The notes under the pieces are model-generated. The model was given only the letters and a program-made list of their open reading frames with translations, ran no database searches and was not told where the DNA came from. A stretch of DNA of 64,000 bases from Bacillales bacterium UBA4855 (GTDB taxonomy: Bacteria; Bacillota_I; Bacilli_A; RFN20; CAG-826), in assembly GCA_002399785.1 (NCBI GenBank), contig DHEH01000004.1, forward strand, positions 19,107 to 83,106, written 5' to 3'. The translations under genes were made by a program, and so were the position numbers. Positions 51,871 through 53,797 of this stretch are shown here, in pieces. The first letter of the stretch is position 1, and each line of letters starts with the position of its first letter.

Positions 51871-52170
51871 TTAAGCAAAAACTTTAAAGTAAATTAATAA
51901 AAATATTAATAACCCTTGCAACAATGTTTCGATGATTCCAGAAATTAAAAACACTCTTTTATGCATCGAATCTTCTAACCTAAAATCAGAAAAGATATAA
52001 AACAATAATAAGATTGGACCGCCAAAAAATATACAAGACAAAGCCATTTCAATAGGTTTTGGTGTTTTTTGGCCACCTCTTAGTTTTTTTAAATAGTTGA
52101 TCATCAATAAATAACTACTTAATAAACCTAAAATAACGACAAGTATTAATATATAAAATGGTAAATTCAT
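51871..52170 (-). CDS. Small 3-TM membrane protein
   Basis: 99-aa hydrophobic ORF. I recognise no family. Confidence 0.3.
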   Translation of the reverse strand: MNLPFYILILVVILGLLSSYLLMINYLKKLRGGQKTPKPIEMALSCIFFGGPILLLFYIFSDFRLEDSMHKRVFLISGIIETLLQGLLIFLLIYFKVFA

Positions 52171-52269
52171 GTATTCTTGTATTCTAAATTCTGTTCTTAG
52201 GATAACAGGAGAATACTTTCCTTTCTTGAGAATGATTTAACTTAAGAGTCCCCTTATTTGATATAATCA

Positions 52270-52430
52270 ATATGCTGTGGATTTGTTTCTATGCTTTTAA
52301 CGCTTTGACGTTTTAAGGAGACTCTTATCACAGCTTTTATTTTGGAGTAGTTATTAGTTAGATAACGCTAGACGTTTCATTTCGCACAAGCTTCTACTTT
52401 AATAAAAGCTCCGTGGAAACACAGCACATA
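52270..52430 (+). ncRNA. Candidate bridge RNA (IS110-family guide RNA) in the 5' non-coding end
   Basis: An extended -10 (TGATATAAT, 52259-52267) precedes two long stem-loops. The first is GCTGTG (52274-52279) / CACAGC (52330-52335). The second is AGCTTTTATT (52333-52342) / AATAAAAGCT (52401-52410), a perfect 10-bp stem. An internal 11-mer, TTAAGGAGACT (52313-52323), is perfectly complementary to 53734-53744. Confidence 0.4.
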
Positions 52431-52443
52431 GGAGGTGACTATC

Positions 52444-53613
52444 ATGTCATATTACGTTGGCATAGACATTGCCAAATTTAAACACGACTGCTTCATCGTG
52501 ACCGGCGATGGAGAAGTTGTCCGAGCCTCATTCTCGTTTCCTAATAACGAAGATGGGTTCAAAGAACTTAAAGCAGCTTTAGATCAACTTGACCATTCTC
52601 AAAAAATAAAAGTTGGTTTAGAAGCTACTGGTCATTACGGAAGGAACCTTAAATTGTTCCTGACATCCATTGGTTATGAGTATTCTGAATTAAACCCATA
52701 CCTGGTTAAGAAATACTCTGAATCAATCACATTGAGACGAACCAAGACTAACAAGAAGAATGCGATGCTAATTGCAAAGTACCTTCAATTTGAAGCTTCT
52801 AAATCCAACCAAGAATTATCTTACACTATTTATGATCTAAAGACCTTAACGAGAAGTAGAGATAAACTTGTAAGAACCAGAAGCAACGAGCTTGTTATCA
52901 TTACAAATTGCTTGGATAGAATGTTCCCAGAATATAAAAGTTTCTTCGGTCGGAAGCTAGGAAAATGTGCTTTGACGATACTTGAGAAGTACCAAACCCC
53001 AGATAAGATTGCTAAGATGAATGATTCAACAATTGTCAAGATGCATAACATCTCAAGATCAATATCAGTTAATAAGTTGATCCGTTTAAAGAATCTAGCA
53101 AAAGTAACTGTAGGTCATTCTTCTAAAAGCGATGTATTTATCATGGGACAATCTATCAAACGCTTTAATATGATTGATGAAGACATTACTGAGATAGAAG
53201 AAGAAATAAAGGCAATGATGAAGGAAATAAAATCGTCAATTGAAACAATTCCAGGTATAGGGACTATTTCTGCTGCATCAATTATTGCCGAATTCGGTGA
53301 TATCAAACGCTTTTCAAATTCTTCAAAAATGCTTGCTTATGCTGGACTAGAATGTTCTAAGCATCAGTCAGGACAAGAGGATTTTAAAGGAAAAATGGTT
53401 AAACATGGGTCTGAACATCTTAGATATGTGCTTACGAATGTAGCTGTTACGGTAAAGAATTTTTCACCAACATTTGCCTCATACTATCTAAAGAAAAGAG
53501 ATGAGGGCAAATGCTATCGAGTCGCTCTTAACCACGTAGTTAAGAAACTATTAAGACTGATATTTAAACTTACATCTACTGACACACAATATAATCTCAG
53601 TTTGTCTAAATAA
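52444..53613 (+). CDS. IS110-family transposase (DEDD recombinase)
   Basis: I set the start at MSYYVGIDIAKFKHD (AGGAGG SD 8 nt upstream). 'GLEATGHYG' and the C-terminal 'IPGIGTISAASIIAEFGDIKRFSNSSKMLAYAGL' are the DEDD_Tnp_IS110 and Transposase_20 signatures. Confidence 0.9.
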   Translation: MSYYVGIDIAKFKHDCFIVTGDGEVVRASFSFPNNEDGFKELKAALDQLDHSQKIKVGLEATGHYGRNLKLFLTSIGYEYSELNPYLVKKYSESITLRRTKTNKKNAMLIAKYLQFEASKSNQELSYTIYDLKTLTRSRDKLVRTRSNELVIITNCLDRMFPEYKSFFGRKLGKCALTILEKYQTPDKIAKMNDSTIVKMHNISRSISVNKLIRLKNLAKVTVGHSSKSDVFIMGQSIKRFNMIDEDITEIEEEIKAMMKEIKSSIETIPGIGTISAASIIAEFGDIKRFSNSSKMLAYAGLECSKHQSGQEDFKGKMVKHGSEHLRYVLTNVAVTVKNFSPTFASYYLKKRDEGKCYRVALNHVVKKLLRLIFKLTSTDTQYNLSLSK

Positions 53614-53751
53614 TTAAATTTTCAAAGAACAATTTTTTATACTAACTCTCATGAGGTGTTTTAAACATACCATAAGAGAAAGACTCAATCAGGCTTTTAA
53701 AGAAAAGCATTTTTCTATTTAATTTTAATAGTTAGTCTCCTTAAATAAAAA

Positions 53752-53779
53752 GTCCTTACGATAATTTTATCATAAGGAC
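53752..53779 (-). terminator. Rho-independent terminator of the sugar ABC operon
   Basis: GTCCTTACGAT / ATCATAAGGAC pair at 10 of 11 positions with a 6-nt loop. An A-run on the plus strand gives a T-run on the minus strand. Confidence 0.6.
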
Positions 53780-53797
53780 CATTTACCTTAAATAAGC

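Follow-up and report, generated by a model that had tools for sequence, protein, structure and literature searches.

IS621 is the natural reference for the locus described here. In IS621, the first loop of the bridge RNA is the target loop, and the order and strand sense of the guide arms are established (Durrant et al. 2024, PMC11208160). The handshake guide concept and the essential role of the recombinase residues D102 and D105 come from the work of Hiraizumi et al. (2024, PMC11208158). The position of the non-coding RNA distinguishes two types of element, as it lies upstream of the recombinase gene in the IS110 type and downstream of it in the IS1111 type (PMC11187229). For IS900 of Mycobacterium avium subsp. 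paratuberculosis and relatives, PMC8141618, which cites Doran et al. 1997, gives the target motif CATGNNNNNNTCTCCTT. CazIS110-1 of Caloranaerobacter azorensis, for which biochemical work is available, is an active element present 10 times in its genome (bioRxiv 10.1101/2025.10.25.684509).

We analysed a 64-kb stretch of DNA from Bacillales bacterium UBA4855, referred to as the window, and all positions are counted from its first letter. With a probability of about 0.88, we conclude that positions 52178-53738 form an IS110-group insertion sequence flanked by a duplicated CT core, that the first loop of its predicted bridge RNA is target-binding and the second donor-binding, and that this copy is most likely immobile. 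The features are collected in Table 1. Transcription of the RNA and the chemistry of recombination are proposed here by homology to IS621.

The element resembles IS621 in many respects. Its recombinase has the DEDD RuvC-like and Tnp domains, the non-coding RNA is encoded in the left end ahead of the recombinase gene, the target loop precedes the donor loop, and the core is CT. The 5' arms (LTG and LDG) read like the top strand, the 3' arms (RTG and RDG) are reverse complements, and the handshake bases are placed directly 3' of RTG. A candidate circle-junction promoter is found in relatives of the window element. In contrast, the recombinase is only distantly similar to that of IS621 (phmmer E about 3e-16 against the structure), RTG forms a long duplex comprising 7 nt of flank, the core and a 3-nt handshake, and the base that reads the second core position T in LTG and LDG is A instead of U. 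Further differences are a left end of ~95 nt, with a hairpin and its own promoter, before the RNA, a target in a translation-initiation region, where IS621 uses a REP element, and Asn at two catalytic Asp positions.

Table 1. Positions of the element, its predicted RNA features and the surrounding host sequences in the window
Feature	Position	Strand	Remarks
Interrupted host gene, 99-aa membrane protein	51871-52170	-	ATG is CAT at 52168-52170; in the ORF list
Left target half (LT)	52168-52175	+	CAT (start codon, reverse complement) and spacer GTATT
Left CT core copy	52176-52177	+	CT at both junctions
IS110-group insertion sequence	52178-53738	+	1,561 bp including the right core copy; ends from copies in other contexts
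Terminal hairpin of the left end, then T-rich run	52179-52216	+	fold -9.9 kcal/mol, not better than shuffles; similar hairpins in relatives
Internal pseudo-site AAGAGTCCCCTTAT	52244-52257	+	in the spacer of the predicted bridge-RNA promoter; includes the left 11-mer of the initial annotation
Extended -10 promoter element TGATATAAT, predicted for bridge RNA	52259-52267	+	read in sequence
Target-binding loop (TBL)	52274-52334	+	closing stem GCUGUG/CACAGC; distal stem AACG/CGUU; fold z=-2.84
Left target guide (LTG) UAUGCUUUUA	52290-52299	+	reads like top strand CATGTATT+CT
Right target guide (RTG) UUUAAGG plus AG	52312-52320	+	pairs with top strand CT+CCTTAAA (53737-53745), 9 nt exact
Handshake guide (HSG) ACU	52321-52323	+	pairs with AGT, last 3 nt of right end (53734-53736)
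Donor-binding loop (DBL)	52334-52408	+	outer stem CUUUUAUU/AAUAAAAG, inner GUAG/CUAC, distal UAACG/CGUU
Left donor guide (LDG) region UUAUUAGUUAGAUA	52351-52364	+	like right-end top strand TTAATAGTTAGTCT (53725-53738)
Right donor guide (RDG) CACAAG	52385-52390	+	ACAAG pairs with CT+TGT, left end (52176-52180)
Recombinase gene, 389 aa, open frame	52444-53613	+	Pfam and NCBIfam matches
Right terminus AATAGTTAGT	53727-53736	+	left-donor half in the circle junction; conserved
Right CT core copy	53737-53738	+	second core position Z=6.8, 100% paired
Right target half CCTTAAA	53739-53745	+	with core, reverse complement of host SD TTTAAGG-AG
Intrinsic terminator of the host's ABC-permease gene upstream	53751-53780	-	13-bp stem then T-run; outside the element

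The ends of the element were set with copies in other contexts (loci L039, L040, L041, L045, L051, L140-L142 and L144). Homology to these copies begins with CTTGTATTC and stops at TTAGTCT(CC), and directly to the left of CTTGTATTC the flanks differ from those of the relatives. L141 and L142 carry one element at two different sites, and stand-alone contigs of relatives measure 1,549-1,577 bp. The left boundary thereby falls at 52176/52178 and the right boundary at 53736/53738. Read directly, the ends TGTATTCT.. and ..TAGTTAGT have no terminal inverted repeats. At the right terminus, AATAGTTA plus 2 nt is kept in nearly all relatives. The hairpin at the left end possibly acts as an insulator against read-in transcription.

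The reconstructed junction of right end, core and left end (RE+CT+LE) contains TTGACT-17-TATAAT (11/12 consensus positions) in 29/41 relatives, and the window element scores 7/12 (TTTAAT-17-TATTCT), the weakest junction promoter of the family. A core of 2 nt is supported by the promoter spacing, which it makes exactly 17 nt in the relatives. The core could also be TC instead of CT, with TCT common to both junctions. A CTT overlap was considered as the crossover and rejected: to restore an SD resembling that of the sister species, the core has to be CT (or TC).

The element is placed between AAGGAG and the ATG of the gene for the 99-aa membrane protein, antisense to this gene, which has homologues in 39/60 genomes of the genus. 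On the minus strand, the reconstructed empty site reads TTTAAGGAG-AATAC-ATG. In the sister species, where the insertion sequence is absent, the order ahead of the homologue is the same: the terminator comes first, then AAAGGAG, and after a short spacer (8 nt where it is clearest) the ATG. Within the species itself, JGI metagenome contigs searched for an empty site gave 0 matches to the 26-nt junction pattern, so the target reconstruction rests on the sister species. The element is present in all same-species contigs and occupies the same site in all sampled strains.

The insertion site follows the IS900 type. IS900, also of the IS110 family, inserts between the ribosome-binding site (RBS) and the start codon in one orientation, and the window site CATG-TATT-CTCCTT corresponds to its target type (CATG-N-CTCCTT). 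The two differ in the spacing from CATG to CTCC, which is 4 nt in the window and 7 nt in IS900, and in the host, which here is a Firmicute or mollicute-like. A hed-like ORF on the complementary strand is absent from the window element; its minus strand holds only internal ORFs of 63 and 73 aa, none from the right end. The same preference is seen across the family. CAT lies 7-16 nt to the left of the element at 48/56 distinct sites, compared with 21% of random positions, and at 42/56 family sites this CAT starts an ORF of at least 50 aa, compared with 5.6% of random positions.

In the proposed mechanism, the complex of recombinase and bridge RNA would synapse the circular RE-CT-LE junction with the host site CATG-N4-CT-CCTTAAA, and strands would be exchanged at CT. 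Such a host site corresponds to the Shine-Dalgarno (SD) box and the start codon of a gene, seen from the opposite strand. The 5' arm of the TBL has the sense of the top strand to the left of the insertion point, that is, the start codon CAT and the spacer, and is complementary to the bottom strand there.

The guide arms of loop 1 agree with such a site. The three 11-mers singled out by the initial annotation are all present where it placed them, and TTAAGGAGACT (52313-52323) is indeed the exact reverse complement of AGTCTCCTTAA (53734-53744). This exact 11-mer occurs at just these two places in the window, and the complementarity is one base longer than reported, extending over 12 nt (52312-52323 against 53734-53745). 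In the integrated element, the partners of the 12-mer are the final 3 nt at the right end, the core and, beyond it, 7 nt of host DNA. The segment is a genuine guide within the first loop, as the annotation supposed, but the guide arm 52312-52323 reads the insertion site and not both element ends. From the recombinase stop to the right-hand match the distance is 121 nt, close to the ~120 nt given earlier, and the host terminator follows the match.

Covariation between guides and flanks, and between guides and ends, was examined in about 60 relatives. RTG and HSG show antidiagonal covariation with the right junction (Z 2.9-6.8). Pairing amounts to 89-100% over junction positions 0-6, which run from the final 2 nt of the element through the core to the third flank base, and falls to 75% at position 7 and 43% at position 8. 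Guide indices 16-17, which belong to HSG, and the two terminal bases of the right end change together (Z 5.4 and 3.6; 95% paired). Among 48 distinct relatives, guides form on average 7.3 contiguous Watson-Crick pairs with their own right junction and 2.1 with mismatched junctions (permutation p<2e-4). In the window, there are 11 contiguous pairs from the anchor and 12 in all.

LTG covaries along the diagonal, with guide positions 17-21 following the flank (Z up to 4.3), and true pairs match at 3.66/5 variable positions compared with 2.50/5 in mismatched pairs (p<2e-4). The loci behind these statistics are related to one another, and the p-values here and for the right junction overstate their independence. 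To match the start codon, (C/U)AU is hard-wired in LTG. Against its own left flank, the window LTG shows 6 identities and 2 U.G wobbles over 10 positions. The left half-site is imperfect, because only 3/5 variable positions match and A stands opposite T at the core. A genome search for a perfect cognate site of LTG and RTG (ATGCTTTYWCCTTAA, up to 2 mismatches) returned only 2-mismatch matches, equal in number to those of the reversed control.

Reading of the donor ends falls to loop 2, where LDG corresponds to the right end and RDG to the core and the adjoining bases at the start of the left end. The LDG region is identical to TTAATAGTTAGTCT at 10/14 positions, 7 of them contiguous. Its variants GUUAGU, GUUAAU and GUUGAU track the right ends ..TTAGT and ..TTAAT, and the RDG types CAAG, CGUG and CGAG accompany the three left-end types CTTG, CACG and CTCG.

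The non-coding 5' part of the element, between the left end and the recombinase ATG, measures 266 nt (52178-52443) rather than the about 200 nt first proposed. In our model, the terminal hairpin is followed by the extended -10 promoter and then by the bridge RNA, which measures roughly 135-150 nt and contains two internal loops. The extended -10 noted earlier is present, and its TATAAT occupies the identical place in all relatives; a two-hexamer promoter scan missed TGATATAAT because it has no -35. With the non-coding RNA and conserved promoter at 52259-52408, upstream of the recombinase, the element follows the IS110 type.

The two stem-loops described earlier correspond to TBL and DBL, and covariation supports both distal stems and the outer stem of DBL. 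The closing stem of TBL is near-invariant in 60 relatives, with 5/6 pairs invariant and the sixth replaced by G.U in one sequence. In the same 60 relatives, both distal stems show compensatory changes, and that of DBL has 22 double changes. The outer stem of DBL is paired at 7.9/8 positions in 56 relatives with 34 stem types, compared with 6.9 in mismatched pairs; RNAalifold on a MAFFT alignment did not recover this stem, which was obtained by anchored extraction with a cross-pair control. The Rfam scan of the region matched no bridge-RNA family, with only a sub-threshold rli40 match. TBL folds with z=-2.84 (Table 1), and the whole 176-nt leader folded alone gives z=-0.83. Single-sequence folding of the leader is not informative here. 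On the basis of guide and stem covariation, the earlier proposal that the 5' part encodes a bridge RNA is borne out as a prediction.

The assignment of the gene to the IS110-family DEDD recombinases holds. Its product matches DEDD_Tnp_IS110 (PF01548, 1.3e-34) and Transposase_20 (PF02371, 5e-23) in Pfam, and NF033542 'IS110 family RNA-guided transposase' in NCBIfam with 210.7 bits at a cut-off of 140. An exact-protein look-up of the transposase returned no record. Of the catalytic residues, D8, E60 and S309 are present, whereas the third and fourth DEDD residues are N103 (52750-52752) and N106 (52759-52761), at positions where the family consensus is D. The catalytic set, four acidic residues (D, E, D, D) and one Ser in the Tnp domain, is thus incomplete in the window copy. 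When the protein is aligned to IS621 (8wt6), N103/N106 fall on D102/D105 and S309 falls on S241, and IS621 mutagenesis suggests that D-to-N changes at both positions would abolish function. These changes bear on the activity of the window copy, not on its homology.

At positions 103 and 106, same-site copies in other strains have D/D (with S309 kept as well in the type of locus L034), D/N, or D/D combined with S309P, and G301R is a further lesion among them. They differ from the window copy by 9-12 nonsynonymous and 1-8 synonymous changes. The insertion sequence diverges by 1-1.7% and its flanks by about 0-0.4%. A second IS110 homologue was not found in the same genome, which is 96% complete, and the element is single-copy. 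Several short metagenome contigs end inside the element or at its end, as is seen with repeats. We judge the window copy to be probably dead and immobile because Asp103 and Asp106 are replaced by Asn, no other copy exists in its genome, every strain sampled has the element at this one site, and the changes are mostly nonsynonymous. In this it differs from CazIS110-1, to which the activity, the 10 copies and the biochemistry belong.

Within the element, the pseudo-site at 52244-52257 is complementary to the guide arm 52313-52326 at 12/14 positions. Its GAGTCYC precedes the -10 hexamer by 2-8 nt, mostly by 5-6 nt, and is conserved only in the clade of the window element. We speculate, as a doubtful suggestion, that it may serve as an operator at which the recombinase-bridge RNA complex of the element represses transcription of the bridge RNA, or as an anti-guide that masks the target guide in longer transcripts; either would make it an autoregulatory half-site. 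To our knowledge, a built-in half-site of this kind is undescribed for IS110 elements.

The initial annotation had combined the exact match at 53734-53744 with a 9/11 match at 52247-52257 into a different layout, in which the 11-mer is a donor-binding guide matching both ends of an element at about 52241-53745. Its length of ~1.5 kb agrees with ours, but its boundaries do not, since homology with copies elsewhere runs 70 nt further left, to 52176. The second match exists, but 70 nt inside the element rather than near the left edge, and at chance frequency: the window contains 23 matches to the 11-mer with up to 2 mismatches, compared with 22.8 expected. At the right junction, 7/12 paired bases come from the host, where they belong to the SD of the gene that the insertion interrupts. 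Meanwhile, loop 2 reads the donor ends with covariation, and the first loop of IS621 is the target loop (PMC11208160). We regard this layout as extremely improbable. Even less credible is the view that the complementarity is a chance result of an SD-like sequence and the 5' region a mere mRNA leader, although the 11-mer includes AAGGAG and the 5' region as a whole folds no better than shuffles. AAGGAG had been named as a caveat that inflates chance matches; here, it is the target itself. The guide-flank covariation extends across 48 distinct junctions and includes variants other than AAGGAG (GAGGUG/CACCTC, GGGGUG/CACCCC, UAGGUG/CACCTA and GAAAGG/CCTTTC), shuffled guide/flank pairs fail to reach the pairing scores of true pairs, and the stems covary. 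The exact 12-nt complementarity is real and not an SD-driven chance match.

For an insertion sequence with this anatomy, it is also conceivable that the copy is still mobile, either because N103/N106 are tolerated or because recombinase is supplied in trans. The open reading frame, the intact appearance of the bridge RNA and both ends, and the repeat-like breaks of metagenome contigs would fit such activity. We consider it unlikely, as both residues align to the essential D102/D105 of IS621 (PMC11208158), the nearly complete genome yielded no second IS110 homologue, the site is shared by all strains, and the junction promoter is the weakest of the family. The substitutions look neutral, and other strains carry different catalytic lesions. 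A dead recombinase and its guide RNA might instead be domesticated and kept as a regulator that RNA guides to SD-like sites in DNA or to its own promoter, an idea that draws on the 389-aa frame, open despite dead catalytic residues, and on the conserved guide-complementary pseudo-site in the promoter spacer. This seems very improbable: other strains keep D103/D106 or carry other lesions (S309P, G301R), and nonsynonymous to synonymous changes stand at ~3-12:1 in counts, indicating no purifying selection. An insertion sequence that is probably inactive and decaying in place is the reading that we retain.

The window element leaves the known IS110 mechanism unchanged, being an ordinary RNA-guided element of the IS110/IS900 type. 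It provides a clean natural example in which four guides and the handshake bases are mapped onto an integrated element, and it corrects an intuitive error, that of taking a loop for the donor loop because its guide matches 'the end'. For annotation, elements of this kind separate a gene from its SD, and single fixed copies can be catalytically dead yet look intact. By covariation, the IS900-type preference for the RBS and start codon is tied to bridge-RNA guides in a Firmicute clade, with RTG as an SD look-alike.

The recombinase ORF of the element passes the cut-off of the NCBIfam equivalog 'IS110 family RNA-guided transposase'. The genome contains only one copy of the element, and its ends were therefore defined from relatives. 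The orthologous element at locus L039, with a 66% identical recombinase, lies in another context; homology extends from CTTGTATTC at window position 52176 to TTAGTCTCC at 53740, and the flanks differ outside. Eighty relatives from genome contigs and five closer ones display the same pattern, starting with (C/T)N-(T/C)GTAT at the left end and finishing with AATAGTTA-NN at the right end. In L141 and L142, which hold one element at two sites, divergence begins exactly at these ends. Relatives assembled alone measure 1,549–1,577 bp, with ~280 nt located 5' of the ORF. When the right end is fused to the left end through a 2-nt core, 29 of 41 relatives yield TTGACT-17-TATAAT, which fixes the core length at 2 nt. 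Based on the relatives' ends and this junction spacing, the element is 52178–53738 (1,561 bp), replacing the 52241–53745 of the initial annotation. The core is either CT or TC, as TCT is common to both junctions.

Coordinates of the features in and around the element
Feature	Position	Remarks
Recombinase ORF	52444-53613	domains DEDD_Tnp_IS110 and Transposase_20
Extended -10 TGATATAAT	52259-52267	read in sequence
Core CT	52176-52177 and 53737-53738	both junctions
Terminator hairpin of neighbouring ABC-permease gene	53751-53780	minus strand
Interrupted 99-aa membrane-protein gene	51871-52170	minus strand

We notice near-consensus junction promoters in, for example, L046, L058, L082, L091 and L116, and degenerate ones (7–8 of 12) in the window's clade. 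Directly 3' of the left-end hairpin (window 52217–52227) lies a C/T-rich block, CTCCTTTCT or TTTCCTTTCTT, which is kept at the equivalent place in the whole family and may be a terminator T-run or a protein site. In L049, the right end stops after AATAGTT, ~104–130 nt past the stop codon, and is followed by TATCTTGTTAC, which resembles the left-end start CTTGTATTC; this may be a rearranged or abutted copy. In L095, the element's promoter segment, cttgacttacccagagggtttagccgtataataattttata, is repeated directly before the left end, ~90–130 nt upstream of the bridge RNA, suggesting a nested or tandem partial copy. The 63%-identity relative L143 (about 380–500) is a truncated element, without the first ~55 nt of the left end and its terminal hairpin.

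The initial annotation centered on an 11-mer in the leader, and a sequence check located all three 11-mers as claimed. TTAAGGAGACT (52313–52323) is the exact reverse complement of AGTCTCCTTAA (53734–53744), the pairing is in fact one base longer (12 nt, 52312–52323 with 53734–53745), and the exact 11-mer occurs at just those two places within the 64-kb window. The extended -10, the host terminator past the right match and the two stem-loops of the leader were likewise recovered, and the suggested search for other copies yielded both boundaries. The 11-mer had been taken for a donor guide. However, it pairs with the right junction, where host DNA supplies seven of the paired bases, and the donor ends are tracked by loop 2.

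In IS621, loop 1 of the bridge RNA binds the target and loop 2 binds the donor; the left target and donor guides (LTG, LDG) have top-strand sense, and the right ones (RTG, RDG) are top-strand reverse complements (PMC11208160). Two bases 3' of the RTG, the handshake guides, pair with the final bases of the donor once strands have been exchanged (PMC11208158). The window element and its relatives share this layout. The loop-1 3' arm covaries antidiagonally with the right junction, at the last two right-end bases (Z 3.6 and 5.4), the second core base (Z 6.8; the first never varies and is paired throughout) and the five flank bases that follow (Z 2.9–5.6). From the two right-end bases through the core to the third flank base (seven positions), pairing is 89–100%; it drops to 75% and 43% at flank bases four and five. 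Variants include GAGGUG/CACCTC, GGGGUG/CACCCC, UAGGUG/CACCTA, AAGGUG/CACCTT and GAAAGG/CCTTTC. True guide/junction combinations average 7.3 contiguous pairs, compared with 2.1 in mismatched ones, and the window guide lies at the top of the distribution with 11 from the anchor and 12 in all. Taken with the loop order of IS621, this covariation identifies the 11-mer as the predicted RTG plus core plus handshake guide.

In the loop-1 5' arm, an unchanging (C/U)AU precedes five variable bases, which agree with those separating CAT from the core (diagonal Z up to 4.3; 3.66/5 in true versus 2.50/5 in mismatched combinations, p<2e-4). In the window, just three of the five match. In loop 2, the RDG tracks the left end (CAAG with CTTG, CGUG with CACG, CGAG with CTCG) and the LDG tracks the right end (GUUAGU with TTAGT; GUUAAU or GUUGAU with TTAAT).

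Aligning the leaders of sixty non-identical relatives revealed compensatory changes in the stems. The loop-1 closing stem, CUGUGG/CCACAG, hardly varies: of its six pairs, five are constant across the alignment, and the window alone has G.U at the remaining one. In the distal stems of both loops, both sides change and the pairs are kept, for example CG to UA, AU to GC and GC to CG in loop 1, and AACG/CGUU to AACA/UGUU in loop 2 of 22 sequences. The loop-2 outer stem (window CUUUUAUU/AAUAAAAG) pairs at 7.9/8 positions across 56 sequences with 34 stem sequences, against 6.9/8 in the mismatched-pair control. Folded on its own, loop 1 outperforms 198 of 200 shuffles. In the L039 element, a ~560-bp insertion with an IstB_IS21 fragment (L039:1835-2397) splits loop 1 from loop 2, and the RTG match to its own right flank is lost beyond CTCC.

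With the element removed, the minus strand reads terminator-TTTATTTAAGG-AG-AATAC-ATG of the 99-aa gene, which is conserved in 39/60 genomes of the genus. Sister species lack the IS and have terminator-AAAGGAG-short spacer-ATG upstream of the same gene, with an 8-nt spacer in the clearest cases. The reconstructed site and this arrangement place the element between the predicted Shine-Dalgarno sequence and start codon, antisense to the gene. A CAT lies 7–16 nt left of the element at 48 of 56 distinct family sites, and at 42 of these it opens an ORF of 50 aa or longer; the corresponding values for random positions in those flanks are 21% and 5.6%. IS900 has the same target type, translation-initiation signals, and its target is given as CATGNNNNNNTCTCCTT in PMC8141618, citing Doran et al. 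1997. At about one third of sites, where CAT lies at -12 or -13 (L040, L140 and L041 among them), the LTG match is best anchored on the start codon with one extra base before the core, which suggests that a 1-nt bulge is tolerated or that insertion was near-cognate.

The left match, AGTCCCCTTAT, is present at 52247–52257, but matches with up to two mismatches number 23 in the window against 22.8 expected. As judged from copies in other contexts, this supposed element edge is internal by 70 nt and falls within the spacer of the putative bridge-RNA promoter. With three bases added (52244–52257), it is complementary to 52313–52326 at 12/14 positions. Only in the window's clade (L039–41, L045, L049, L051, L140–144) is GAGTCYC conserved upstream of the -10 hexamer, at a distance of 2–8 nt and mostly of 5–6 nt. 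On the L045 branch, GAGCC replaces it, and the guide (GGCUC) and right end (AGCCT) change with it. In L041 and in the window, the pseudo-site differs from the guide, uncompensated. A role as operator or anti-guide is a tentative possibility.

Based on alignment with the IS621 structure, N103 and N106 correspond to the catalytic residues D102 and D105, and S309 to S241; the family consensus is D at both former positions. Among same-site copies, L034 has D103/D106, L029 and L033 have D103/N106, and L036–38 have D/D with S309P and G301R. These copies differ from the window's by 9–12 nonsynonymous and 1–8 synonymous changes. Between strains, the element diverges by 1–1.7% and the host flanks by ~0–0.4%, a gap to be expected from neutral drift next to constrained genes. 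The window junction promoter (7/12) is the weakest in the family. The simplest reading of these sequences is an old, fixed and decaying insertion, whose RNA gene still looks intact. Just downstream of the recombinase stop, seven differences fall within 16 nt (53641–53656) between the window and L028–30 and L036; the L037 and L038 contigs share the same variant patch, and both stop at window position 53661. The patch could be a small conversion tract or terminator-hairpin variation.

The host genome is 1.3 Mb with low G+C. The sources of the same-species contigs are MAGs and several public metagenome assemblies, of which one is titled a fermentation metagenome; L005 (genome G028, same genus) and L045 are apparently the same contig stretch. 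Bridge RNAs of IS110 elements have been known since 2024 and IS900-type targeting of translation-initiation signals since 1997; the window element is a further member, whose unusual details are just the apparently dead catalytic site and the putative promoter pseudo-site.
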